This document shows positions 9,465 to 64,000 of a stretch of 64,000 nt of DNA, in pieces. The position numbers were made by a program, and so were the translations under genes. Positions within the stretch are counted from its first letter, which is position 1. Each line of letters opens with the position of its first letter. Source of the DNA: an uncultured Candidatus Saccharibacteria bacterium (GTDB lineage Bacteria > Patescibacteriota > Minisyncoccia > CAIUEV01 > JAHKAQ01). Where the stretch lies: contig CAZRBB010000001.1 of the NCBI GenBank assembly GCA_964598205.1, forward strand, positions 156,199 through 220,198, in the 5' to 3' direction. Below the pieces are notes generated by a model. It was not told where the DNA came from. It did no database searches and saw only the letters and a list, made by a program, of their open reading frames with translations.

Positions 9465-10874
9465 ATGCAAAAGAATTTTAAAGGAAAAAGAGTAACGATA
9501 ATGGGCCTGGGATTACAGGGAAGCGGAATAGCAGCGGTCAAGTTCTTTCACCGAGAAGGAGCCAAGATTACGGTCACCGATATCAAGACAAAAGAAAAAC
9601 TCAGTCCTTCTTTAGAAAAATTAAAGGATTTAAAAAATATTGAATATGTTTTAGGCCAGCACCGGCAGGAAGATTTTAGTCGTGCCGATTTAATAATTAA
9701 AGGTCCAGGCATTCCTTTTGATTCTAAATATCTAAAAATTGCCAGAAAAAATAAAGTTCCAATAGAAACAGAAGCCGGTGTTTTTTTTGATTTACTCTCC
9801 AATCCTTTAATTGGAATCACAGGGACTAGGGGGAAATCCACAACCTCGCAATTAATTTACGAAATTATAAAGCTTTCTGGTAGAAAAGTTTCCTTAGGAG
9901 GAAACATAAAAGATAAGCCCCTTTTAGCTCTTCTGGAGAATATTAAGAAAGATTCTTGGTTGGTAGCCGAACTTTCTAGTTTTCAATTAGAGAGTTTGGG
10001 TCCCAAAAGTCAAAGCCCTCACATTGCAGTCATGACCAATCTCTTGGAAGATCATTTAAATCGTTATGAAAACTTAGAAGCCTATCATGCCGCTAAAGAA
10101 GCAATTATTAGAAATCAAACAGAAGATGATTTTGCCGTTTTAAACTATAATGACAAGCGGGTACGAGTCTTGTCTGCTAAAACCAAAGCCCAAATTTGTT
10201 TTTTTTCACAGAACAGAATTACCGGTGGCCGCCGGGTTTTTGTTTCCGACCGTAAAATTTTTACAGCCAAAGGCCTAGAAGAAGAATTAGTTTTAGATTT
10301 AGACAGACTAAGTTTAATCGGTGGTCATCGAGTAGAAAGTGTTTTAGCGGCAGTAGCAGTTGCGGTGATTATGAAGATTGATTTTTCTGTTATAAAAAAA
10401 GCTGTTTACGGCTTTAAAGGGCTAGAGCACCGGTTAGAAGCAGTAAAAGAAGTGGCTGGTGTTCTTTATATTAACGACACAACAGCGACCACGCCTCAGG
10501 CGGCCGCTAAGGCGATCGCTTCTTTTGGGGAGCCAACTATTCTAATTGCCGGCGGTGCAGATAAAGGCTTGGATTTTAGCCCCCTGGTTGATTCAATAAT
10601 TGGCTCGTCCAATCTAAAAAAAATAATCTTGTTAAAAGGAGATGGAACTATACGATTAGAAAATATGTTTAAAAAAATGGCACCAGCTGATTTCCTCCTC
10701 TCATTATTTTTAAAAAGGGATTGTGATTCATTAGAAGAAGCTTTAATCCTGGCTCAAAAGGTTGCCGTGGCTGGAGATGTAGTGCTTCTTTCGCCGGGGT
10801 GCTCCAGTTTTGGAATGTTCGAAAATGAGTTTGCCCGAGGGGATATTTTTAAAGAGTTAGTTAATTCTTTTTAA
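9465..10874 (+). CDS. murD: UDP-N-acetylmuramoylalanine--D-glutamate ligase
   Basis: KRVTIMGLGLQGSGIAAVKFF Rossmann N-terminus and GITGTRGKSTT Mur-ligase P-loop. 469 aa. Confidence 0.9.
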   Translation: MQKNFKGKRVTIMGLGLQGSGIAAVKFFHREGAKITVTDIKTKEKLSPSLEKLKDLKNIEYVLGQHRQEDFSRADLIIKGPGIPFDSKYLKIARKNKVPIETEAGVFFDLLSNPLIGITGTRGKSTTSQLIYEIIKLSGRKVSLGGNIKDKPLLALLENIKKDSWLVAELSSFQLESLGPKSQSPHIAVMTNLLEDHLNRYENLEAYHAAKEAIIRNQTEDDFAVLNYNDKRVRVLSAKTKAQICFFSQNRITGGRRVFVSDRKIFTAKGLEEELVLDLDRLSLIGGHRVESVLAAVAVAVIMKIDFSVIKKAVYGFKGLEHRLEAVKEVAGVLYINDTTATTPQAAAKAIASFGEPTILIAGGADKGLDFSPLVDSIIGSSNLKKIILLKGDGTIRLENMFKKMAPADFLLSLFLKRDCDSLEEALILAQKVAVAGDVVLLSPGCSSFGMFENEFARGDIFKELVNSF

Positions 10875-10918: not shown

Positions 10919-12457
10919 ATGTTTTGGAGAAATTTTTTTATTATAGCCAACTCGGCTTTTTTAGTCGGTCTTCTGAGTTGTTTTTTAATTGGCGGGGAAT
11001 TAGGTTTAAAAAAAGAAACTCTTTTTCTTTGGGCTGTTCTTTTGGTTTTTGTTTTTCTTTTTTTTAAAAAAAGAAAAAAAGTAAGAGTCATTATTTTTTT
11101 CTTGTTCTTTTTTGTAGTAGGTTTTAGTCGCTTGTTTTGGGCGGAATCTTTTTTTAATCAAGGCGAATTACTGAATTTTAACAATCAGGAAGTTATTGGT
11201 TTTGGTTCCCTAGGAGAATGCCAAAGAAAAGCTCCAGGAATGGAAGAATGTTTTCTTTCTGATCTGGAAATAAACAAAATTGGTCAAAAAGAAAACATTG
11301 ACCTGGGGAGAAACAAACATTTATTGGTTCTTTTTTACAACAGAGAAAAAGAAATCGGCGAAGATGAATTTTTTAGAGTGGGTTTTCGTGGGCAGTTGGT
11401 GATTCCAGAGGATTTTGGTCGCTCTCTTTCTGGTGCCGAGCGAACCAGTTTATTCAAAAGACAAGCAGTAGGTATTCTAAAAAATCATCGTTTTGATTTT
11501 TTATATCCCGAAAAAAAAGAATTCAGCCTTAATCATTTCTTTTCAATCCTAAGAGAGAAGGTTTTTAATTCTTCTCGCCAATTTTGGGAAGATGATAATT
11601 TAGGATTGGCCTTGGCTTTTTTAACTGGAGACAAAAGCCAGCTTTCCTTGGAGCTTAAAAAAATAATTAATTGTCTAGGATTAGCTCATTTAATTGCAGT
11701 TTCGGGAATGCAATTTACATCTCTTGGCTTTCTGTTAGAAGCTGGGCTTTTTTTTCTTAATTTTCCTCACAAAGTGCGTTTCTACTTAATAATGGCTGTC
11801 CTTTTATTTTTTCTTCTTTTTATTGGTGCACCAGCCGCTGCCAGCCGTGCTTTTTTAATGGATTTTTTAAATAGATTGGCGGTGCGTTGTGGTAGAAAAA
11901 TTACTTTTTGGGCTTCTTTTCTGTTCTCTGCCAGCCTTCTCTTGTTATTTAATCCTTGGAGTCTATTTTATGATCTGGGATTTTTGTTTTCTTTTTTTGC
12001 TATTTGGGGTTTATATTTTTTTGGCGATTTTTTTAGAATCCAATCTTTACCAACGGCCTTACAAGAAAGTTTGGCTCTTAATTTGGCCGCTCAAACAGCG
12101 ACCGCCCCATTGGCTCTTTTCTATTTTCCTTACTTTTCTCCGTTGAGCGTGGTTGTTAATCTCCTGGTCGGTTGGTTGGCAATTCCCCTGATCGTTCTTT
12201 CTTTTGGCGCTCTTCTTTTAGCTCCTTTATTTCTCCCTTTAGCAGAACTGCTTTCTTCTTGTGCTACCTGTTTAGTTTTTTATTTTGTTTTGATTTTAGA
12301 AAAAATAAAATCAATTTCTTGGTCCTGTCTTTCCCTAGAAAATAACATGTTTTGGGCTGGAGTGTTTTTTGCGGTAGTAGCACTCCTAGCCTTTGGTTTA
12401 AAAATTTTTAATTTAAAAGAAAAAAATGAAAAAGATCGGTTTTTTAGTGTTGGCTAA
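10919..12457 (+). CDS. comEC: ComEC/Rec2 DNA-uptake channel, N-terminal and competence (TM) domains
   Basis: Polytopic membrane protein with GLAHLIAVSGMQFTSLGFLL competence-domain motif. Ends 32 nt after the next ORF begins. Confidence 0.7.
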   Translation: MFWRNFFIIANSAFLVGLLSCFLIGGELGLKKETLFLWAVLLVFVFLFFKKRKKVRVIIFFLFFFVVGFSRLFWAESFFNQGELLNFNNQEVIGFGSLGECQRKAPGMEECFLSDLEINKIGQKENIDLGRNKHLLVLFYNREKEIGEDEFFRVGFRGQLVIPEDFGRSLSGAERTSLFKRQAVGILKNHRFDFLYPEKKEFSLNHFFSILREKVFNSSRQFWEDDNLGLALAFLTGDKSQLSLELKKIINCLGLAHLIAVSGMQFTSLGFLLEAGLFFLNFPHKVRFYLIMAVLLFFLLFIGAPAAASRAFLMDFLNRLAVRCGRKITFWASFLFSASLLLLFNPWSLFYDLGFLFSFFAIWGLYFFGDFFRIQSLPTALQESLALNLAAQTATAPLALFYFPYFSPLSVVVNLLVGWLAIPLIVLSFGALLLAPLFLPLAELLSSCATCLVFYFVLILEKIKSISWSCLSLENNMFWAGVFFAVVALLAFGLKIFNLKEKNEKDRFFSVG

Positions 12458-13292
12458 TTTATTTTTAGCTTTTTATTCTTCTTATTATTTTTATTGGGGA
12501 AGCCATCTTAATGTTCTTCCAATAGAACCAACAATCACTGCGTTTAATATTGGCCAAGGCGATGCGCTTTTTGTTCCTATTCCCAAAACTTCTATTCAGA
12601 TATTAATAGATGGTGGTCCTCCCAACAAAAATCTAATCGAAAAAATAAAAAAGGAAATGCCAAGAGGGGATAAAACCATTGATTTAGTTTTTCTTACTCA
12701 TTGTCATGAAGATCATTTAGGAGGATTGGGAGAAGTTTTAGATAATTTTAAAGTTGGTCTTTGGGTAGAAACGGGGGCAGTCTGTGAAAATAATCTTTAT
12801 AAAGACTTGGAATCAAAAATTAATTCCCAAAAAATACCTCGTCTTTACTCGGCGCGTGGGCAAAAAATAAAAATTGGCAACTTCTTTTTGGCAGAAGTTG
12901 TACATCCTTTCTTTTCGGTTGGAGCAGAGTATAAAAACGAAAATGAAGCTTCGCTGTCCCTGCTTTTGGATTACGCCGGGAAAGTGGTTTTTTTGTCGGG
13001 TGATTTAGAAAACAAAGGCGAACAAGTACTTTTAAACTATTTAGAAAGCAAACCAGAAATCAAAGAAAAATTAAAAAATACTTCCATGCTAAAAGCTAAT
13101 CACCATGGAAGTAGCGGTTCTAACTCCAAAGAATTTTTTTCTTTATTTCCTAGTGGAACTAACATTCTAATTTCTTCTGGAAAGGAAAATAAATTTGGTC
13201 ACCCCGGAGAAGAGGCGATTAAAAGAATGAAAGACAAAGAGTTTAAAATTAAGCGTACAGACCAAGACGGAGAAATAACCTTACTTTTTTAG
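12426..13292 (+). CDS. ComEC C-terminal metallo-beta-lactamase domain, encoded as a separate overlapping ORF
   Basis: N-terminal TM helix, then FNIGQGDALFV ... THCHEDHLGGL ... ANHHGS MBL motifs. Confidence 0.75.
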   Translation: MKKIGFLVLANLFLAFYSSYYFYWGSHLNVLPIEPTITAFNIGQGDALFVPIPKTSIQILIDGGPPNKNLIEKIKKEMPRGDKTIDLVFLTHCHEDHLGGLGEVLDNFKVGLWVETGAVCENNLYKDLESKINSQKIPRLYSARGQKIKIGNFFLAEVVHPFFSVGAEYKNENEASLSLLLDYAGKVVFLSGDLENKGEQVLLNYLESKPEIKEKLKNTSMLKANHHGSSGSNSKEFFSLFPSGTNILISSGKENKFGHPGEEAIKRMKDKEFKIKRTDQDGEITLLF

Positions 13293-13300
13293 TAAAAAAT

Positions 13301-13567
13301 TTAATGAAAAAGTTTCCCCCAAAAAGAACCACCACCGCTAGAGCGGTCGATTCTCTTTAATTCGCTGGAATTCATCTGTAAAAGATCTCTAGAAGAAACA
13401 GGTTTTTGATCTTCTTGCTGAACTTTTTTTTCATAACTAGAATATTCTCTAGCTGCTTCTCTGGCTTTGCTATTTATTTCTCCCAAGGACATTCTTTGTT
13501 CGGGATCCAAGTTCCGATTTTCTTGACTAAATTTTCTTCTAAAATCTGATTCTGCTCCAGAAGCCAT
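13301..13567 (-). CDS. Hypothetical small charged protein
   Basis: 88-aa ORF. No recognisable motif. Confidence 0.3.
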   Translation of the reverse strand: MASGAESDFRRKFSQENRNLDPEQRMSLGEINSKAREAAREYSSYEKKVQQEDQKPVSSRDLLQMNSSELKRIDRSSGGGSFWGKLFH

Positions 13568-13654
13568 TTTTTTATTTTAATAATAAATTAAGTAACCGTA
13601 ATTATATTATATTTTTAGGTTTTTAAAAACGCTGGTCAAAGGTTACAAGCTGGT

Positions 13655-15025
13655 TTACTTCTTTTGATTCAAGGCTTCCTTAAAAATAGTAACTACTTCC
13701 CTAAATCCTTCCTTGTCTTCACTGCCAGCGGCAATTCGGAATAATTTTTCTCCCAATGGTAAGATCCAAGTTTCCGGATGACCAAAGCTTCCGCCAATTT
13801 TAATTTTTCCTTGACCTTTTTCATAGACTCTCCGGACCAATTCTTCGCTAGTCATTTCTTTTAGCTCAGCATAAAATAAAGACACAATTCCTTGAGGAGA
13901 AAATTTATCTGCCAATTCCTTATCGGGATGACCAGGGAGGTTGGGATGGTAGACTCCTTCCATTTGCTCTGATGCAACTAGTTCTGTTGCCAATACTAGA
14001 GCGTTCTCGGCGTGGCGAGTCATTTTTTCTTTCATTTGCGCCAAAGAAGATTCAGGGACTTTTTTAAGACTAGAAGGTTGTAGGTAAGCACCAATCAGCG
14101 TTCTTGTTTTTCTTATCGCTTCTATTTTTTTAGGGTTATTAGAATAAGCAACTCCTAGGGTAACTTTGTCTTCTCCTTGTTGGTAATGCTTGGTTCCGCT
14201 TTCCACAACTACAACATCTGTGGCGGAATCCTGAGGGATATTTTTAAATATATTTAAAAGTTCAGGAGAGGGGAGAGTGTTGTCTATAATTAAGCTTAGC
14301 TTTTTTCGCGCGGCGCCGTTGATATACCCAACAATATCGACTAGGTCACCAATAATTTCTTTTCGGTCCAAACTGGATCCTTTCTTCATTTCTCTAACCG
14401 CCTCCCTAAAGCAGAAATAATTATTTGTTTTATTAAAGGTGGTAATGGAACTTAAAATTTCTTGTTTTGCTTCTTCATCTAAACTTGAATATCTTTCCCT
14501 AAATCTAGTAGCAATTCTTTTGTCTAAAAGTTTTGCCGGGGTTCTTTCCTGGTATTGTTCGTTGATTTGGTCAGTGAATTTAATAACCGATTCTATGTCT
14601 GTCACTCTCATTTCTGGACTGTTTGCCACGCTTTCAAAAAAAATAGAACGGGGAGAATTTTGTTGGGCCAATTCTTCTAAAGCCTTGGTATTTCCAGGTT
14701 TAAAAGTAACAACCTTTATTCCTCTTTTTTTTAAATCCAAAAACAAGTCACCTGTGCAATCGTAAACACCAGTACTTACCAAGATTGTTTCTCCGGGTCT
14801 TAATCCTTCAGCTTCCGTGGCGGTGTGAATTGCGGCCATCCCAGAGTTGGTAACTGCTACTTCTGGTACGCCTATTTTTTCGGCTAGCTGACCTTCCCAG
14901 GCTCGTTCTTCTTGGTAGCCGTATCTAGCATAAGCATCGGTTTCGCGGAGTTTGCCGGCCATAAAAAGAGCTCCCTGATCCTTGATTGATTCCGGAGTGT
15001 GCGGGGTAGTTATTTTTTCGTACAT
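13655..15025 (-). CDS. PLP-dependent enzyme of the Cys/Met-metabolism family (cystathionine gamma-synthase / O-acetylhomoserine sulfhydrylase-like) with a ~100-aa insertion
   Basis: VTNSGMAAIH..., ESVANSPEMRVTDI and VVVVESGTKHY (putative PLP-lysine) motifs. 456 aa is longer than typical family members. Confidence 0.55.
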   Translation of the reverse strand: MYEKITTPHTPESIKDQGALFMAGKLRETDAYARYGYQEERAWEGQLAEKIGVPEVAVTNSGMAAIHTATEAEGLRPGETILVSTGVYDCTGDLFLDLKKRGIKVVTFKPGNTKALEELAQQNSPRSIFFESVANSPEMRVTDIESVIKFTDQINEQYQERTPAKLLDKRIATRFRERYSSLDEEAKQEILSSITTFNKTNNYFCFREAVREMKKGSSLDRKEIIGDLVDIVGYINGAARKKLSLIIDNTLPSPELLNIFKNIPQDSATDVVVVESGTKHYQQGEDKVTLGVAYSNNPKKIEAIRKTRTLIGAYLQPSSLKKVPESSLAQMKEKMTRHAENALVLATELVASEQMEGVYHPNLPGHPDKELADKFSPQGIVSLFYAELKEMTSEELVRRVYEKGQGKIKIGGSFGHPETWILPLGEKLFRIAAGSEDKEGFREVVTIFKEALNQKK

Positions 15026-15070
15026 AAAAAAAGTCTATTTATTTTTAATTTTTAAAAACGATTCTTGTAG

Positions 15071-15307
15071 TTATTCTACGCTAAACACCTTGTTCCGAGA
15101 AGTAGCACCAGCCAAAATACTGATTCTTCCAGGAGCAATTCCTAAGTGATTGGCCAAAAGGGTAATTGCTTTTTGATTAGCCTTGCCTTTTTCTGGTGGT
15201 ATCGAGACTCGGATTTCGTAATGGCCAGGGGTAATTTCTTTAATAGAATTTTCTTTGGCTTTGATTTTTATTTTGGCAAAAATTTGCATATTAAAAAATT
15301 GAATCAA
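15071..15307 (-). CDS. DUF167 / YggU (UPF0235) family protein
   Basis: IRVSIPPEKGKANQKAITLLANHLGIAPGRISILAGATSRNKVF matches the YggU consensus pattern. Confidence 0.65.
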   Translation of the reverse strand: MIQFFNMQIFAKIKIKAKENSIKEITPGHYEIRVSIPPEKGKANQKAITLLANHLGIAPGRISILAGATSRNKVFSVE

Positions 15308-15369
15308 TTGTGTTAATTTCTTGGCAATAAATTTATTTTAAAATTCCGTAATTACAAAAATAATCTTAA

Positions 15370-18458: not shown

Positions 18459-19298
18459 TTAACGCAAATATTCTTTATTCCTTAATTTTGGAAAAAAACT
18501 ATTACCAGTCACCACTTTCTTGCCGGTTTTTTCTTCCAGTTCTAGCCGTGCATTTTTAGCTATCTGTCCGCCTCTTTTTGCTGGAACCTTGTTTTCTTTT
18601 AATCCCTTAGCCTTTATTGTTTCTGCTATTTGCCGTGTAGATAATTCAGCGAGAGCGGTAAATACCAGCTCTGCATCCGTTAAATGATCACGCAAATTTC
18701 CCCGTTTTATGTTTTTCAGGGCTTTGTGCTTCTTAATTGTTAAATCGCTCCACTCCTGATGGATAATATTTGTCAAAATAGCGTACTCGTCTTTTTCTTT
18801 GACTTTATTACTTTTCCAATAATCAGTTAACTTATTTCTGATTTCCTGACCCATCATTCGTTGCTGGATCCATTTTTGACTTCGGCCCATCTTTTGCCAA
18901 TAATTGCGCGAACGATTCAGTGCTTTTTCTGGATTGGATATTTCTTGGATTCTTTCATAGCCAACCCTAGCCAACCAAATTTTAATTGGTTCCGCTTTTG
19001 AACTTGGTACGGATTGAATAAGGCGCAATAAATGCTCTGGGCTTCCGGCTAGAATTTTTCTTTTTTTACCATTTTCCCCGATCATTTCTACCTGGGGACA
19101 ATTTGTCCCTAGGTAATTGGCGAGTAGATGATCTCTTTTCCTTAATTTTTTTAAATAATCCGTTGGATTGACGCTGTTAGTAAGCACTTTAATAACATCC
19201 ACAACTGAAAAATACCATTTTTCTTGTTTTTCATTCCAAGCTCGGCGGATTTTTTTACCTTCAAAAATAGCTAATTTTTTTTTATCTTTTTTCATCAC
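18459..19298 (-). CDS. Bro-N domain protein (phage antirepressor-like)
   Basis: N-terminal FEGKKIRRAWNEKQEKWYFSVVDVIKVLTNSVNPTDY fits the Bro-N pattern. Adjacent to tRNA-Ser. Confidence 0.55.
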   Translation of the reverse strand: MMKKDKKKLAIFEGKKIRRAWNEKQEKWYFSVVDVIKVLTNSVNPTDYLKKLRKRDHLLANYLGTNCPQVEMIGENGKKRKILAGSPEHLLRLIQSVPSSKAEPIKIWLARVGYERIQEISNPEKALNRSRNYWQKMGRSQKWIQQRMMGQEIRNKLTDYWKSNKVKEKDEYAILTNIIHQEWSDLTIKKHKALKNIKRGNLRDHLTDAELVFTALAELSTRQIAETIKAKGLKENKVPAKRGGQIAKNARLELEEKTGKKVVTGNSFFPKLRNKEYLR

Positions 19299-19371
19299 GA
19301 TTCAAAATTTAAAACTCTTAAAATCCTATCACACAAATAATAAAAAAGTTTTAAATAAAAAAAGTAAAACT

Positions 19372-19461
19372 TGGCGGAGAGGCAGGGATTTGAACCCTGG
19401 GTACTCTTGCGAGTACACTTGATTTCGAGTCAAGCCCATTCGACCACTCTGGCACCTCTCC
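19372..19461 (-). tRNA. tRNA-Ser (anticodon CGA), long variable arm, CCA encoded
   Basis: Reverse complement folds as GGAGAGG acceptor, anticodon stem-loop CTTGA-CTCGAAA-TCAAG, long variable arm GTACTCGCAAGAGTAC, T-arm CCAGGGTTCAAATCCCTG, and ends CCA. Confidence 0.85.
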
Positions 19462-19552
19462 AAGAAATATTCAACAGATTTAATCTAGCACTATAAAAAT
19501 TAATCGATAAGCATTTAAGAGGAATATCTCGTGTTTTTTAAAGCCAATGTTT

Positions 19553-19675
19553 TTTAAGGAGGCCCCTTGTTCTCTCCTACTAAAGTTTAAGCTTTTTAGG
19601 CAAAAGAGAAAAAGAACAAGGTGGAGCGAGGCCCGGTCGAGCGCGAGCGTACTCCGAAAAAAATATTGGCTTTAA
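19553..19675. repeat. GC-rich palindromic intergenic repeat, family 'GGAGGCYCCTTGTTC...GAACAAGGYGGAGCGAG...CGAGCGTACTCCGAAAAA' (copy A)
   Basis: ~80% identical over ~115 nt to 22268..22376. Contains internal inverted repeats. The 69-aa minus-strand ORF here is a translation artefact. Confidence 0.7.
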
Positions 19676-19757
19676 AAAAGAAACATAGATTTTTAAAAGA
19701 AAAAGCCGAGCGTCTCTTAGAGAGACAATTTGAATAGTTATTGGCCAGTTTCCAAAT

Positions 19758-19831
19758 GCGCGCCCGAGAGGATTTGAACCTCTGATCTCTGGCTTCGGAG
19801 GCCAACGCTCTATCCAGCTGAGCTACGGGCG
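19758..19831 (-). tRNA. tRNA-Arg (anticodon CCG)
   Basis: Reverse complement GCGCCCGTAGCTCAGCTGGATAGAGCG-TTGGC-CTCCGAA-GCCAG...GGTTCAAATCCTCTCGGGCGCG gives a cloverleaf with anticodon loop CTCCGAA. Confidence 0.85.
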
Positions 19832-19922
19832 CAATTGATTATTGTAATCCCTAATCCTAATAAACTGCCATCTATTTTTACCGCTATTTTTTGTTTTTGC
19901 CTAGCTGTTTTAGAAATCAACA

Positions 19923-20040
19923 GGACTTCTCCATTTGGTGTAGTTCAAGGCAAAACCGAGTAAGCGAGCGACGCGTAATTATGTTACGAAGAGCGAGCGA
20001 CGGAGGTTTTAACGAAGAAATGCACCAAATGGAGAAGTCC
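19923..20040 (+). repeat. Structured repeat element copy 1: 18-bp perfect terminal inverted repeats enclosing a conserved 81-nt GC-rich core
   Basis: ggacttctccatttggtg (19923-19940) is the exact reverse complement of caccaaatggagaagtcc (20023-20040). The core is identical to 21515-21596. Overlaps the rlmN stop and its last ~10 codons. Confidence 0.8.
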
Positions 20041-21037
20041 TATTTCCCGCTAATTGACCACAAGCCGCATTAATACTAGTTCCGCGGCTTTTCCGTACAA
20101 CTACCTCTATCTGCAACTTTTCTAATTCTTTCCTAAAAGCCATCACTGTTTCCTTGGAAGCTGGCTTAAAATCACCGACTGGGTTGCCACTTAAAAGATT
20201 GACCATAAACAAGCCACCCAAGCCCTTTTTTAAAAGTCTCCCCAATTCTTGGGCATCGGCAGGGGAGTCGTTTATTCCCAAAAACAAGGCGTATTCAATC
20301 ATTATTTTACGACGCCTGATTTTTAAATAATCGCGCAAAGCTCCTAGAACCTCTCTTGTCGGATTAGTTATTTCTACCGGCATATATCTTTGTCTTTCCG
20401 CACTATTAGAAAAATGCAGGGAGAAAGCTAAATTTACCTGCCAGTCTTCTTGGGTAAAGGCGCGAATTCCTTCTGTAATACCGGCAGTAGAAACGGAAAT
20501 TTTCCTAGCACCAATATTCAAACCCTCTGGATCATTAATTGCTAGAATCGCTTTTTTTACTTCTTCATAATTCAAAAACGGTTCGCCCATTCCCATAAAA
20601 ACCACGCTCGTTATTTTTTGGTTCTCCTTTTTTAATTCGCGCGCCCAAAAAATAAGTTGCAAAAGAATTTCCCAATTAGTTAGGTTTCTTTTGAATCCGG
20701 CCTGACCAGTAGCACAAAAAGTGCAAGCCAATTGGCAACCAGCCGCCACCGAAACACAAACCGAATTGTTGCCTTCACTGCCTTTAATTAAAACTGTTTC
20801 TACTCGTACTCCGTCAAAGGTTAAGACCGCTTTTTGAGTCTGGTTATCCGTATCCGCTTTTTTTTCAACATCAATACTCAATGGCAGATCTTTTCCTAAT
20901 TCTTCTTTTAGTTCCTTGGGCAATACGGAAACTTGTTCCCAAGAATCAAAAAGGGAAACAAAAATAGCGCGCTTAATCTGTGCCACACGGAAGCGGGGAA
21001 GTCGGCTTAAAATATTAACTAGCTTTTCTTGGTACAT
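20009..21037 (-). CDS. rlmN: 23S rRNA (adenine2503-C2)-methyltransferase, radical SAM
   Basis: CQLACTFCATGQ radical-SAM CxxxCxxC, GMGEP, and C-terminal AACGQL motif. 342 aa. Confidence 0.9.
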   Translation of the reverse strand: MYQEKLVNILSRLPRFRVAQIKRAIFVSLFDSWEQVSVLPKELKEELGKDLPLSIDVEKKADTDNQTQKAVLTFDGVRVETVLIKGSEGNNSVCVSVAAGCQLACTFCATGQAGFKRNLTNWEILLQLIFWARELKKENQKITSVVFMGMGEPFLNYEEVKKAILAINDPEGLNIGARKISVSTAGITEGIRAFTQEDWQVNLAFSLHFSNSAERQRYMPVEITNPTREVLGALRDYLKIRRRKIMIEYALFLGINDSPADAQELGRLLKKGLGGLFMVNLLSGNPVGDFKPASKETVMAFRKELEKLQIEVVVRKSRGTSINAACGQLAGNRTSPFGAFLR

Positions 21038-21122
21038 TTTTTAAAAATCAATCAAACAATCAACCTCACCGCAAATCAGAGCTCGGCCTTGCTCTAATAA
21101 ATTCGTGTCGTGTAATTTTAGC

Positions 21123-21458
21123 TTAGGTTAAACGGTAAAGTAGAGAGATAGAAACAACGGCCAGGAATAGCCCCAAAATCTCTATTGGTAAAAGTTGCTC
21201 TTTAAAGTAAAAAACGCTGATTAAGGCAGAAGAAATTATAAAAGTGAGAGTAAAAATAATTCCAGCGTTTAAGAATTCCATTTTTTTAAAAACAAAGAAC
21301 CAACCAAAAACTGAGAAAAAGTAAATTAAACCGGCCACTCCCAGAAAGATCGGTACGGAAAAAACTTGTTTTAACGCCGCTTTCTTTATTAAGAGGTCCG
21401 CAATAACAATCAAGAAGCTAAAAGATAAAATGACCGGTAGGATACTAAATTTTCCCAT
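21123..21458 (-). CDS. Small 4-TM membrane protein (DMT/EamA-like half-transporter?)
   Basis: 111 aa with four hydrophobic helices. Confidence 0.4.
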   Translation of the reverse strand: MGKFSILPVILSFSFLIVIADLLIKKAALKQVFSVPIFLGVAGLIYFFSVFGWFFVFKKMEFLNAGIIFTLTFIISSALISVFYFKEQLLPIEILGLFLAVVSISLLYRLT

Positions 21459-21496
21459 GGCGATTTTTTACTTTTTATGGAACTGTTTGGCTGGGA

Positions 21497-21613
21497 CTTT
21501 GTGTATTTGAATGCAGTTCAAGGCAAAACCGAGTAAGCGAGCGACGCGTAATTATGTTACGAAGAGCGAGCGACGGAGGTTTTAACGAAGAAATGCATTC
21601 AAATACACAAAGT
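21497..21613 (+). repeat. Structured repeat element copy 2: 19-bp perfect terminal inverted repeats enclosing the same 81-nt core as copy 1
   Basis: ctttgtgtatttgaatgca (21497-21515) is the reverse complement of tgcattcaaatacacaaag (21595-21613). Sits immediately 3' of the clpP stop (21618-21620). Confidence 0.8.
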
Positions 21614-21617
21614 TCAT

Positions 21618-22193
21618 TTATTTAATAATTTTATCTATTACGCCATACTTCTTGGCTTCTTCCGCGCTCATGTAGAAATCACGATCAGTGTCTTTTTCTA
21701 ACTGTAATATTTTTTGACCGGTAGTTTGCGCTAAAATTTTATTTAATTTTTCTTTGGTTTTTAAAATGTGCCTAGCAGAAATTTCTACATCAGAAGCTTG
21801 ACCTTCGGCACCACCCATTACCTGATGAAGCAGGACTTCTGAATTAGGAAGAGCCAGTCTTTTTCCTTTGCAACCAGCAGAAAGCAGTACCGCCGCCATG
21901 CTAGCAGCAATACCCACGCAAATTGTGGATACATCACATTTTACATAATTCATGGTATCAAAAATTGCCAAACCAGCAGTAACGCTTCCGCCAGGAGAAT
22001 TAATGTAAAGCTTAATATCTTGTTCCTTGTTTTGGCTTTCCAAGAAAAGAAGTTGGGCAATAATAGTATTGGCAGTAGGGTCGTCAATAGCACCAGAAAG
22101 AAAAACAATTCTTTCTTTTAAGAGGCGAGAATAAATATCGTAAGCTCGCTCTCCGTATTGTGATTTTTCAATAACAGTAGGTATAAGATTCAT
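21618..22193 (-). CDS. clpP: ATP-dependent Clp protease proteolytic subunit
   Basis: [32 protein letters not shown] (catalytic Ser) and HQVMGG (His) motifs. Confidence 0.95.
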
Positions 22194-22267
22194 AAAATTA
22201 AATTAAAATATTATTCGATAAGTTTAGTATATCCTCTTGACTGGCATCATTTCCAAGCAGATGTCTT

Positions 22268-22376
22268 TAGAGGAGGCTCCTTGTTCCCGCCCATTAAGCT
22301 CCAAGCTTTTTAGAGAGAACAAAACAGGAACAAGGCGGAGCGAGACCCGGTCGAGGTCGAGCGTACTCCGAAAAAG
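22268..22376. repeat. GC-rich palindromic intergenic repeat (copy B of the family at 19553..19675)
   Basis: gaggaggctccttgttcccgcc ... ggaacaaggcggagcgagacccggtcgaggtcgagcgtactccgaaaaag. The ORF 22310..22495 is an artefact. Confidence 0.7.
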
Positions 22377-22425
22377 AATATCGTCTTAGGGAAGGCTCTC
22401 TGTGTTAACTTGTGGTCGCATTGCT

Positions 22426-22493
22426 GATTCTTGGGAAGACTCGCGTAGGCAGACTCAGAGCCTTGTCTGCCCAAGCGAGTCTTCCCAAGAATC
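22426..22493. repeat. Nested perfect hairpin immediately 3' of tig
   Basis: 19-bp perfect inverted repeat gattcttgggaagactcgc/gcgagtcttcccaagaatc with an inner 7-bp inverted repeat ggcagac/gtctgcc. Confidence 0.7.
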
Positions 22494-22501
22494 AAGCGCT
22501 T

Positions 22502-23797
22502 TTAAACCTCCAAGAATTCTTTCTTTAACCAAGCAATCACCTTCTGTTTACTCAAAAAGTTTTCGGCATAGGCTTTGACTCGCTCTGGATCTATATCTTT
22601 AGTTTCGGCCCCGCTTTGACGGAATTCGTTGAGCAATTTTTCTGTTTCTTTTTCTATTTCTTCTTTTGTGGCGCTGATTTCTTTTTCTTTGCCGATGGTC
22701 ATTAATGCTAGTTCGGTCTTAACTCTTTTTTTGGCATCATCGTGCCAATCACCTAAAAGAGCCTTTTTGGTTGTTTTTACTTTTTCCAAATAAGTTTCCA
22801 AGGAAAGTCCCATATGGGTAAGCTGGTTTTCTAGTTCCGAAAGCATTTTATTTTTTTCTTCTTCCACAAAAACATTGGGAATTTCCGTCTTGGTTTCTTC
22901 GGCAATCGTCTTTATTAAATCCTCTAATGATTCATGAATCATTTTTGCTTCCTTTTCGTTTCTTAGATTATTTCTTAGGCTTTCTCTTAAATTTTCTGCA
23001 CTGGTAAAACGACCCAGTCCCTTAGCAAAGTCATCGGTTACTTCTGGTAGCTCTTGTTCCTGTACTAATTTCATTAAAATCTCGAACTCTCCTTTTTTAC
23101 CTTTTAGATTGTCGTCGTAATAATCTTTAGGAAAATCAAGAGAAAAATTTTTCTTTTCTTCGGCTTTTAATCCAATTAGTTGATCTTCAAAGCCGGGAAT
23201 AAATTTTTCTTCGCCAATAACCAGCGGATGATTCATGCTAGAACCACCCTCCACCGGCACTCCAGAGAAAGAAAGCTTAAAGTTTATTTCTACCAAGTCA
23301 CCCTTCTTAGCTTCACGATTCACAGTAACTGTTTTGGCTCGTGATTTTCGCAGATGGTCTAAGACTTTAGTTGTTTCTTCTTCTGTAATTTTAATTTCTT
23401 CTAAATTTGGTTTTTTAAATTTTAATTTTTTAAGATCTGGTAGTGTTATTTCGGGGAAAACACTTATTCGGGCTTCGTAAATCAAACCGGTTTCTGGGGA
23501 ATTTTCTTTAACATCTATTTTAGGGGAACCAAAAATATCTAGCTTTTTCTCCAAAAGAGCTGCTAAAAATGTTTTATTGATTGCTGTTTCTAAGACTTCT
23601 TTTTTAAAACCTTCTTCTCCGGCCACTTTTTTCACTGCTTCTACGGTAGCCTTGCCAGGGCGGAAACCAGGGAGAGGGTTTTTCTTGGAATAAATCAACG
23701 CCGCTTTTTTGGCAAAAGAAGCTAGTTCCTGTTTAGAAATGTTTATTTCTAAAATAATTTCTGATTGAGGTAAATCTTTTAGGGTAACTTTTGGCAT
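22502..23797 (-). CDS. tig: Trigger factor
   Basis: N-terminal ribosome-binding region with GFRPGKA motif. FKBP-like middle and C-terminal chaperone arm domains. 431 aa. Confidence 0.85.
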   Translation of the reverse strand: MPKVTLKDLPQSEIILEINISKQELASFAKKAALIYSKKNPLPGFRPGKATVEAVKKVAGEEGFKKEVLETAINKTFLAALLEKKLDIFGSPKIDVKENSPETGLIYEARISVFPEITLPDLKKLKFKKPNLEEIKITEEETTKVLDHLRKSRAKTVTVNREAKKGDLVEINFKLSFSGVPVEGGSSMNHPLVIGEEKFIPGFEDQLIGLKAEEKKNFSLDFPKDYYDDNLKGKKGEFEILMKLVQEQELPEVTDDFAKGLGRFTSAENLRESLRNNLRNEKEAKMIHESLEDLIKTIAEETKTEIPNVFVEEEKNKMLSELENQLTHMGLSLETYLEKVKTTKKALLGDWHDDAKKRVKTELALMTIGKEKEISATKEEIEKETEKLLNEFRQSGAETKDIDPERVKAYAENFLSKQKVIAWLKKEFLEV

Positions 23798-26165: not shown

Positions 26166-26231
26166 CTTGAGTTTAATGGGAAAGGGGGTGACTGTCAATA
26201 AAGCTAGGAATTTTTTAATAAAAATTGAAAA

Positions 26232-26289
26232 ATAACCCAATAACTATTTTAAACAGAATTGAGTTGCTTCTGTTTAAAATAGTTATTGG
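26232..26289. repeat. 23-bp perfect inverted repeat (hairpin/operator-like) just 3' of the ArsP-like gene
   Basis: cccaataactattttaaacagaa - ttgagttgc - ttctgtttaaaatagttattggg. Confidence 0.7.
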
Positions 26290-26318
26290 GTTATTTCCTC
26301 TTCTACATAAAAATGCTC

Positions 26319-30613: not shown

Positions 30614-30866
30614 CTATTTTTTTTAATTTTGACTCATTTTCTCACAAATTTTAAGATTTGTCTTTTATTTAATCCCAGGAGATAAATTTTTAATTACGAA
30701 TTTTGAGTTTTGATTAAAATTCTAATTTTGAATTTTAAAACAATTTAGAATTTTGAGTTTCCAATTTTATTCAAAATTAAAAACTCAAAATTAAAAATTA
30801 AGGGTAGCGTTTTCAATTCTGATTGGATTCGCTACAATTAAAAAATAACAGTAAGTATTCAAAATC

Positions 30867-36622: not shown

Positions 36623-36870
36623 TTTAGATTCTTTTTATTTTCTCTTTCGTTTCTTTTTAAACACTTTTGTCTAAGCTGAGCCTAGTTCTTTTTCATTAAC
36701 AGGAACAATCATAGCATATTTAAAAATCAGTCTAAAGTCGGCTAATTACGAATTATGTTCCGTTTTTTCTCGGAAGCAATGTTCCCAGAGGAAGCTTCTT
36801 GTTCCCATGAAAGAGACCAGAGGAGTATCCATTGGGTAGACTAACGAGGAGGCTCCTTATTCCCACGAAA

Positions 36871-36938
36871 GAGAGTAGAGGAGTATCCATTGGGTAGACT
36901 AAGAGCCATGTCTACCCAATGGATACTCCTCTACTCTC
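36871..36938. repeat. 29-bp perfect inverted repeat (10-nt loop) in the smc/response-regulator divergent intergenic region, preceded by two ~57-bp direct repeat units
   Basis: gagagtagaggagtatccattgggtagac (36871-36899) is the reverse complement of 36910-36938. The upstream units at ~36786-36900 share GGAGGCTCCTT(G/A)TTCCC with repeats A and B. Confidence 0.8.
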
Positions 36939-37001
36939 TAAGCCAGACCCTTGACCTAGAAAAATAAAAATGCCAGCTTTACCCGTTAATTATTTTTTTC
37001 T

Positions 37002-52433: not shown

Positions 52434-52444
52434 CTTTTGACTAG

Positions 52445-52720
52445 CGCAGGACTTGAACACGAAGGGGGTCGGGGAAACTGTAGTTTCCCCGTTGGGGGTG
52501 ACAGCGAGTCCCGTTGAAAACGGGACGAGCGCCAGAGGGCGGAAGCCCTATGGAGAGCGAGCAAAGCGAGCGAGTGAAAGTCCTGCCATTAATATCTTGA
52601 ACGGGGATGGGGTCGGGAAACCGGGAGGTTTCCCGTGGCGGAGGAATCGGAACCGATGGGTTCCGAAGCGGAGCGAACCGCAGCGGAGCGGAGGTGAGTG
52701 AGCAGTGAAATTCCTGCCCG
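52445..52720 (+). ncRNA. GC-rich structured tandem element (two ~135-nt units), candidate structured RNA or tRNA-derived repeat; identity unknown
   Basis: Both units run from 'cttgaac' to 'gtgaaa(g/t)tcctgcc'. Each carries two strong hairpins at equivalent positions with different sequences (ggggaaactgtagtttcccc vs gggaaaccgggaggtttccc; cccgttgaaaacggg vs ggaaccgatgggttcc). All six reading frames are open, which is typical of non-coding GC-rich DNA. Confidence 0.4.
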
Positions 52721-52893
52721 AGGATATTCAAAATATTTAATATACTATAAAAATCTTCGAATCAATCATTGAATAATTTGTTATTGATCTTTTACAAAAT
52801 AAAGACCGCCAGTATTTGCCACTGGAAAGCAATGAATCATAAAGTTCCTAGTACACTAGGAACTAGGAACTTTTTTTGTTATGATATAAGCAC

Positions 52894-63646: not shown

Positions 63647-64000
63647 TTTTTTTAAATAAAAATCATGTTCACTTTTTATAGCACATCTTTATTCAATTAT
63701 GAATTACGAATTTTGAATTTCGAAATAATTTAGAATTTAAAATTCGTAGTTCAATCGAAATTTCTAATTAACCACCAGCATAATTTAAATTCAAGAGGAG
63801 ACGCTCAATTTTTTCCGGCGAAAAATTTCGCTAGAATATTGGAAAAATTTTCGGAACCGAAAATATTTTCAAAGAGCATGCTCAACGGTTAATTCAAAAC
63901 AGACAAAATTTCACCTAGAGTCTTATTGAGGTTGTATTTAGAATTGGTAAATTTTTTTGAAGAAAATGAAATTCATAATAGTGACGAGGGTGAAAATATT

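Follow-up and report, generated by a model that had tools for sequence, protein, structure and literature searches.

The 64-kb window analyzed here, that is, the whole stretch of DNA presented above (contig CAZRBB010000001.1, positions 156,199 to 220,198), has a GC content of about 37% and a gene content that points to the Patescibacteria (candidate phyla radiation, CPR), whose genomes are tiny and streamlined. It was examined together with about 12 kb of flanks, so that about 76 kb of this genome was covered. Two similar GC-rich intergenic elements, copies A and B, are located in a minus-strand run of genes with the order tig, clpP, EamA-like membrane protein, radical-SAM (RlmN-like) enzyme, tRNA-Arg(CCG), tRNA-Ser(CGA) and Bro-N protein. 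The locus is crowded, with four repeat elements and a long hairpin (H1) within 3 kb. Its main features are, in window positions:

19372-19461, minus strand: tRNA-Ser(CGA).
19499-19511, minus strand: tail motif of unit A, CTTATCGATTAAT, about 25 nt from the arms and, on the gene strand, about 40 nt upstream of tRNA-Ser.
19532-19681, plus strand: copy A, full element, between tRNA-Ser(CGA) and tRNA-Arg(CCG); 176.8 bits with the covariance model.
19532-19555 and 19658-19681: outer inverted-repeat arms of copy A, with the core at about 19556-19662.
19758-19832, minus strand: tRNA-Arg(CCG).
21618-22193, minus strand: clpP.
22210-22222, minus strand: tail motif of unit B, CTTATCGAATAAT, with the start codon of clpP 17 nt downstream on the gene strand.
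22246-22396, plus strand: copy B, full element, between clpP and tig, with the core at about 22270-22376; 178.2 bits with the covariance model.
22425-22454, pairing with 22465-22494: hairpin H1, with 30-nt arms (28 of 30 positions complementary) and a 10-nt loop.
22502-23797, minus strand: tig, encoding trigger factor.

A repeat search aligns A (19536-19661) with B (22250-22375) over 126 nt without gaps at 79% identity, and a MAFFT alignment gives 81%, in agreement with the value of about 80% in a preliminary description of this DNA. The same description had correctly placed both copies between the genes named above and had recognized their internal inverted repeats and the hairpin following B. 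In copy A, 24-nt arms complementary at 22 of 24 positions enclose a 102-nt core of 51% GC; copy B has the same architecture with less complementary outer arms, which contribute 13 pairs to the consensus fold. The GC content of the two elements is 40-50%, compared with 37% for the genome. The core parts are as follows:

5' module of copy A: AGGAGGCCCCTTGTTC; consensus GAGGAGGCYCCTTGTTCYC.
Central hairpin of copy A: variable, with conserved AAGCTTTTTAG.
GC-rich 3' module of copy A: GAACAAGGTGGAGCGAGGCCCGGTCGAGCGCGAGCGTACTCCGAAAAA; consensus GAACAAGG-N-GGAGCGAG-N-CCCGGTCGAG-NN-CGAGCGTACTCCGAAAAA.

Identity between the copies is highest in the 3' module (44/50, 88%), followed by the 5' module (16/19) and the center (25/38), and lowest in the outer left arm (14/24, 58%), although the inner 10-15 nt of the arms can still be aligned (ATGTYTTTA / AAAAARAATAT). 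The repeat unit reaches about 50 nt further toward lower coordinates than first described and includes the exact tail motif CTTATCGAWTAAT, which on the gene strand follows each copy after about 25 nt; the sites at 19499-19511 and 22210-22222 are its sole exact matches in the window. A and B are the only full copies in the window according to an nhmmer profile (E 6e-49 and 3e-51). A covariance model run with filters off likewise found A and B alone at 177-178 bits, the next match being the antisense of A (32 bits) and the rest noise of at most 16 bits in the window. The possibility, raised in the preliminary description, that the copies are assembly artifacts is contradicted by the identity of their sequence across independent assemblies, including two from JGI. 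Three independent Logan contigs (L003, L004, and L005) have their ends inside H1, at window positions 22448-22494.

The relationship of this locus to a second one at 36.8 kb reveals how the family is organized. The following features are located there, in the divergent spacer between the minus-strand gene for SMC and the plus-strand gene for a response regulator:

36788-36902, plus strand: two tandem 58-nt units (89% identical, period 58, 2.0 copies), each with the 5' module (GAGGAAGCTTCTTGTTCCC, then GAGGAGGCTCCTTATTCCC) first and then the left arm of H2.
36870-36939: hairpin H2, a perfect 30-bp stem with the 10-nt loop TAAGAGCCAT (-74 kcal/mol, z -9.6).

The 5' module occurs twice at 36.8 kb because of the 58-nt tandem duplication. 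Its 19-21 nt piece GAGGAGGCTCCTTGTTCCC was detected by blastn (19 nt, 94.7%, E 0.007), and none of 300 shuffles reached the score of the local alignment between B and the 58-nt unit. The kinship with half-units at 36.8 kb proposed in the preliminary description is therefore real, but confined to this 19-21 nt module. A further link is provided by the hairpins. H1, located about 50 nt from B and starting 8 nt past the stop codon of tig, has a tip, GGCAGAC-TCAGAGCCTT-GTCTGCC, homologous to that of H2. The match between the two spans 27 nt at the apex (GGYAGAC-TMAGAGCCWT-GTCTRCC) and contains one compensated change of a C-G to a T-A pair; its local score is 34 against 13.0±2.2 for dinucleotide shuffles (0/300). 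Thus the B locus and the 36.8-kb locus have two modules in common, in the same order and the same orientation; the 5' module and the hairpin are about 135 nt apart at B and 5 nt apart at the 36.8-kb locus, where the 5' module and the left arm are additionally duplicated. At least three modules (the 5' module, the GC-rich 3' module and the long hairpin with conserved tip) make up the A/B family, a mosaic in which they are combined differently at three loci. Both the modules common to B and the 36.8-kb locus and the tandem duplication represent the behavior of a mosaic-repeat family. Module order and orientation are alike at all three loci, also relative to the next minus-strand gene (tRNA-Ser, clpP, and SMC), which with n = 3 could be chance.

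Another long palindrome of the window, located directly downstream of an ArsP-type permease gene (26230-26296), is an AT-rich hairpin with a perfect stem of 29 bp and a loop of 9 nt; its sequence bears no relation to that of H1 or H2. This genome may habitually carry long perfect palindromes behind its genes.

The view of the preliminary description that this is a genuine family of GC-rich structured intergenic repeats is supported, and the family has no match in Rfam, plasmids, phages or viral contigs. No element matched Rfam at gathering thresholds, and permissive thresholds gave for every element only generic hairpin (miRNA-precursor) matches far below threshold. A lysM-TM7 match at 36686-36825 was rejected as poorly aligned (24.7 bits vs. 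a threshold of 61.5). In blastn searches against plasmids and phages only the clpP part of the query was matched, with 65-68% identity among the matches listed, and the elements themselves found none; five viral-contig scans with the A/B, C (described below) and H motifs returned nothing or chance matches in coding regions. Among the matches listed for GGAGCGAGNCCCGGTCGAG in a genome-contig collection only chance ones in high-GC genomes were present, and GGTCGAGNNCGAGCGTACTCCG gave three chance matches in GC-rich coding DNA of a metagenome-contig collection; the patterns used in these two large scans were GC-rich and unspecific, or absent from the collection. The literature search returned no description of such repeats, or of dispersed repeat families, in Patescibacteria, in line with the earlier statement that they are undescribed for this kind of genome.

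The trigger factor encoded next to B is identical on JGI (Ga0485169_0000023), NCBI and Logan contigs. Its matches in the protein collection, which contains no close sister genome, drop from 100% to 48%; the next-best relatives are 46-48% identical, and their source names include Patescibacteria, Moranbacteria and Parcubacteria. The nusA-DHH-tig-clpP cluster is conserved among relatives. Its tig-clpP spacer, 308 nt long here, measures 75 nt in L121, 4 nt each in L122, L129 and L130, 43 nt in L131, 18 nt in L132 and 33 nt in the P0015 contig; similarly, the spacer between the SMC and response regulator genes is 379 nt here vs. 192 nt in L129. The comparison with relatives proposed in the preliminary description revealed no A/B sequence in the spacers of these seven relatives: nhmmer profiles of A/B, C and H found nothing, nor did the covariance model find any A/B sequence in these spacers. 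Since the spacers of the relatives are short, B with H1 and the 36.8-kb array look like insertions.

Overall, the reading we prefer, tentatively and with somewhat less than even confidence, is that A and B represent, in two diverged copies, a palindromic repeat that is non-coding and non-autonomous, a decayed mosaic of the kind known from miniature inverted-repeat transposable elements (MITEs), ERIC, BOX or BIME, co-transcribed within operons. In its favor are the non-coding nature of the copies, their inverted-repeat ends and stable fold, the reshuffled and tandemly duplicated modules, the presence as additional DNA in unrelated spacers with no counterpart in the relatives, the missing tie to any one gene function, the local crowding of repeat elements and the lack of a matching described RNA family. 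The copies would have spread locally by transposition or recombination and, in view of their 20% divergence, some time ago. They would now be transcribed as part of the tig-clpP-...-tRNA transcription unit, and their sole likely effect would be a stable RNA stem-loop acting on the processing or stability of the flanking transcripts, as for ERIC and REP, co-transcribed repeats that affect mRNA processing and stability (PMC3184786). As far as visible, the family looks low-copy and lineage-restricted, with no sign of a new kind of system.

Several observations weigh against this reading. Just two full copies are present in about 76 kb, and there is no transposase in the window or flanks. A convincing target-site duplication was found at neither copy; the flanking direct repeats, TTTAA at A and GTCTT at B, are short, with ill-defined boundaries, as an AT-rich flank gives by chance. 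Conservation is opposite to that of a classic MITE, being best in the internal 3' module and least in the outer arms, and the arms of A and B are no more alike than unrelated controls. Both the orientation relative to the downstream gene, which all copies share, and the position of the conserved tail motif just upstream of that gene would also fit a regulatory role. Finally, the relatives that provide the "empty site" comparison are distant (Tig 40-48% identical), so that insertion is inferred rather than directly seen. The better conservation of the interior than of the ends keeps alive the explanations by a functional module and by an insert in a palindrome.

The alternative that survives best is that A and B represent functional structured RNAs related to each other as paralogs, whether small RNAs or 5'-leader or processing elements; this is possible, but on the whole unlikely. 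Their active part would be the largely unpaired GC-rich module or a CCUCC/GGAGG pairing, for example in a stem whose cleavage by RNase III would release tig, clpP and the tRNAs from one long transcript. Consistent with such a role, the elements are GC-rich in an AT-rich genome, are most conserved inside rather than at their termini, keep their orientation to the downstream gene at all three loci, and an RNase III gene is located just beyond the window. The consensus fold of the plus strand comprises 38 pairs in six helices arranged as a Y-shaped three-way junction, built from a two-part outer closing stem, a GGAG/CUCC helix, a CCUUGUUC/GAACAAGG hairpin that carries a small helix at its apex, and a short GC hairpin. 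Each of the 38 pairs is formed in A as well as in B; four are preserved by two-sided changes and six by changes from G-C or A-U to G-U. Copy A folds at -52.8 kcal/mol (z -5.4; other strand z -4.4). The fold of copy B, however, is weak compared with shuffles, with z -1.2 on the plus strand and -2.8 on the other. The structure and covariation check proposed in the preliminary description thus yielded pairs kept in both copies, but as many as 26 of 500 shuffles matched the observed covariation value. Because only two sequences are available and the structure was derived from the same two, the test is nearly powerless and the conservation of pairs has little statistical weight. The G-U evidence as to the relevant strand, if any, is mixed. 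A terminator scan of 19200-22700 found no terminator-like site in A, B or H1 and no U-tract, and no start codon follows GGAG on the gene strand. A functional RNA is further disfavored by the lack of an Rfam match, by the lack of sequence conservation at orthologous positions in 7/7 relatives and by the mutually unrelated genes downstream, since the modules lie upstream of tRNA, clpP and SMC with no tie to a particular gene function.

A structural look-alike in one relative is a further point for the functional RNA. Outside the window the A/B covariance model had one match, at L121 9820-9973 (30.3 bits, E about 7e-5 for 99 kb, a rough value), covering the whole model. It falls in the following feature:

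L121 (ENA ERZ21869533, contig_5 of a 1.2-Mb genome), 9813-9980: nested palindrome of 168 nt in the DHH-tig spacer.

The palindrome is missing from the DHH-tig spacer of the other relatives, which is 16-30 nt long. It has the size (about 154-168 nt) and Y topology of A/B, with the helices in the same order (a long closing stem with CCUCC/GGAGG, a long hairpin, and a short GC hairpin GAGCGA...GCGU), and its orientation relative to tig is that of B. Decoys of 620 kb, chosen for an exact 18-nt match to the most conserved stretch of the model, reached at most 22.6 bits, and other long hairpins of the window and L121 at most 16 bits. On the other hand, the pairing of the look-alike is close to perfect (-102 kcal/mol), and base-pairing may account for much of its score; its primary sequence is otherwise unrelated, and nhmmer found nothing. 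It is therefore a possible distant member of the family or a convergent analogue. The same L121 contig contains a second long nested palindrome (11951-12107; 29-nt arms, 99-nt interior) directly after clpP. The clpP gene itself (11366-11940) is called as 136 aa although its frame seems to continue, and a frameshift is possible. Located 1-3 kb beyond (13019-15348) are genes for a serine recombinase and a REP_ORF2-G2P replication initiator, suggesting an integrated element.

It is rather improbable that A and B represent, instead of the palindromic repeat preferred above, a duplicated regulatory module acting at the DNA level, that is, a promoter or operator bound by a protein through the CTTATCGAWTAAT motif and a near-palindromic GGAGNCTCC box and controlling tRNA-Ser, clpP and possibly SMC. 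The exact 13-nt tail motif, found at two sites only in the window, 17-40 nt upstream of the downstream gene, would fit this role, as would the uniform orientation of the 5' module, which precedes a gene at 3/3 loci, and the palindromic nature of GGAGGCTCC and GAAGCTTC. A promoter-like TGGAAA-18-TATACT also overlaps the tail of B, but promoter sites are no commoner than in shuffles (7 vs. 6.8 expected). Moreover, the distance from tail motif to gene is unequal in A and B, this explanation offers no role for the long stems or the GC-rich module, no regulator was identified, and spacers of 4-75 nt suffice in the relatives.

Similarly doubtful is the idea that the conserved GC-rich cores are small mobile inserts in the loops or centers of pre-existing locus-specific palindromes, such as the 3' hairpins of genes, the arms being target DNA. 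The pattern is seen clearly in two other elements of the same locus, C1 and C2, whose 86-nt GC-rich core corresponds to the 81-nt core of the preliminary description:

19919-20044: C1, core 19939-20024, just downstream of the radical-SAM gene.
21494-21615: C2, core 21512-21597, just downstream of clpP.

The cores are 99% identical and contain a small CGTAA/TTACG hairpin flanked by two direct GAGCGAGCGACG repeats. They are centered exactly in two different near-perfect palindromes of 18-22 bp and bracketed by TGCA (C2) and TGTA/TGCA (C1), while the flanking arms of C1 and C2 are unrelated (p about 0.02, as for controls); the radical-SAM open reading frame (ORF) runs 11 codons into the right arm of C1. 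This looks like insertion into palindrome centers. In the case of A/B, the arms of A are complementary at 22/24 positions and yet just 58% identical to those of B, and long palindromes free of inserts (H1, H2, and 26230-26296) exist in the same genome. In addition, palindromic repeats are documented insertion targets of insertion sequence (IS) elements (PMC1525189; PMC3184786). This explanation is weakened by the still alignable inner 10-15 nt of the A/B arms, which blur the boundary, and by the failure to find empty C-type target palindromes (ATTTG..TGCA..CAAAT); there are two examples per family only. The arms of A are also unlike an intrinsic terminator, with a T-run upstream of the stem and an A-run downstream.

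A broader generalization, which we regard as speculative and probably incorrect, would be that small GC-rich cores placed at the apices of long, perfect and locus-specific palindromes form a class of elements in this CPR lineage, represented by A, C1, C2 and the Y-shaped analogue next to tig in the genus-level relative. These could be either mobile elements targeting hairpin loops or palindrome centers, possibly via GAGC-rich direct repeats, or lineage-specific modules of RNase III-type processing between cistrons and tRNAs. Under either interpretation such a class would be undescribed for Patescibacteria.

The last alternative, a small basic peptide encoded on the plus strand of A and B, is effectively refuted: although each copy carries an open 42-codon frame (19547-19675 in A, 22261-22389 in B) whose ATG and stop are aligned between the two, peptide identity is 52% compared with 79-81% nucleotide identity, the 27 substitutions are split 7/9/11 over the codon positions, the differing codons comprise 20 non-synonymous and 4 synonymous ones, and a HMMER profile of the 42-aa frame had only two low-complexity chance matches (a eukaryote-like tandem repeat and a REP-flanked DUF559-like protein) among 1.84 billion representative proteins. 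With no excess of synonymous or third-position changes and no homologues, a small protein gene on A/B was rejected. Several reading frames are open in A/B because GC-rich DNA in an AT-rich genome is naturally stop-poor, and the two similar small ORFs noted in the preliminary description are indeed present and, as stated there, spurious. Six-frame chimeric profiles revealed no further copies of A/B via spurious ORFs and no matches for the C1/C2 core. In the JGI annotation, a 38-aa gene (MERGPVERERTPKK...) at 19621-19737 on the plus strand overlaps copy A; it is a spurious ORF arising from the GC-rich 3' module.

The preliminary description had also proposed one superfamily uniting A/B with the 81-nt core elements and with tandem units at 52.4 kb, on the basis of a recurring word, GAGCGAGCGA. 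With up to one mismatch allowed, neither A nor B contains this word, which does occur in the 81-nt core elements and near 52.56 kb, and local alignments of A/B with the 81-nt core (p 0.58-0.99) and with the two 52.4-kb units (p 0.44-0.88) are at chance level against dinucleotide shuffles. Both results leave the superfamily unsupported; these elements have in common only a GC-rich, GAGC-rich composition, and the real link of A/B within the window is to the H1/H2 hairpins and the 36.8-kb units.

The 52.4-kb units themselves (52441-52722), GC-rich and about 130 nt long, form a tandem pair behind tRNA-Arg(TCT) and the terminator-like hairpin belonging to it. Three hairpins are present in each unit; their stem sequences vary from one unit to the other, but complementarity is kept. 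The units end in copies of the 3' half of a tRNA T-arm, GTGAAAGTCCTGCC and GTGAAATTCCTGCC, and an inverted T-arm copy is present at 52444-52458. No Rfam match above threshold was found for them; they may have been left by a tRNA-targeted integration event or may represent a structured RNA. An AT-rich repeat family (AATTTCTAATTTTGAATTT...), separate from A/B, has copies in direct as well as inverted orientation in three intergenic regions whose GC content is about 21% (2704-2804, 30683-30800, and 63690-63763). A 24-nt tandem repeat with a 6-nt sub-period GGAGCA (2387-2478) lies within ORF 1452-2609, which is TM1266-like.

The A/B repeat triples the length of an operon spacer, indicating that selfish or regulatory non-coding DNA persists even in streamlined Patescibacteria. 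Palindromes of this kind break short-read assemblies of this organism, as evidenced by the Logan contigs that stop inside H1, and palindromic repeats create spurious small ORFs in annotations. The most notable features are the hairpin-apex pattern common to A and C1/C2 and the Y-shaped analogue in a relative. The targeting of hairpin loops, clearest in C1/C2, would, if true genome-wide, be a useful natural case of structure-directed insertion.

Among known systems, MITEs such as Correia/NEMIS and Nezha resemble A/B in being shorter than 200 nt, devoid of ORFs and intergenic, and in having a core enclosed by terminal inverted repeats and a predicted fold that is stable; filled vs. short spacers between orthologous genes are a further parallel as far as the distant relatives (Tig 40-48% identical) can show it. 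A/B have terminal inverted repeats (22/24 in A, weaker in B) and are short (about 150 nt) and free of a transposase ORF. Unlike MITEs, they show no convincing target-site duplication, their ends are least and their interior most conserved, and no parent IS with matching ends is known; candidate end sequences for matching to a parent element are GGAGGCYCCTTGTTC and, with the TGCA bracket, TGCA-GTTCAAGG. Resemblances to IS5-type ends and YTAR targets, and to T-shaped parvovirus ITRs with GAGC repeats, were considered but are not asserted here.

The preliminary description had called the repeats REP/BIME-like, which holds as an analogy. Like REP/BIME/REPIN and the pneumococcal BOX, A/B are mosaics of short palindromic modules with tandem duplication and GC-rich stem-loops downstream of genes; REP, BIME and BOX palindromes are also possible targets of other mobile DNA (PMC1525189; PMC3116915). 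REP-type features were not found, however. REP sequences are described as 20-40 nt long, usually present in more than 100 copies and associated with a RAYT transposase (PMC2817692), while the A/B unit is about 150 nt long with two full copies in 64 kb plus 12 kb flanks, and no RAYT/HUH protein is encoded among the window ORFs that were scanned or had precomputed Pfam matches.

ERIC/IRU of enterobacteria and YPAL/RU differ from A/B in belonging to another phylum, in sequence, with no similarity detected in the Rfam, plasmid and phage searches, in the two full copies seen here and in the Y-shape of A/B, which is not a single hairpin. They nevertheless resemble A/B as imperfect palindromes of about 100-170 nt that are intergenic and transcribed, often within operons, and form long stem-loops (PMC3184786); their copies vary by internal insertions and can alter mRNA processing and stability (PMC3184786). 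The A/B family is thus new in sequence and apparently undescribed for Patescibacteria, but familiar in kind.

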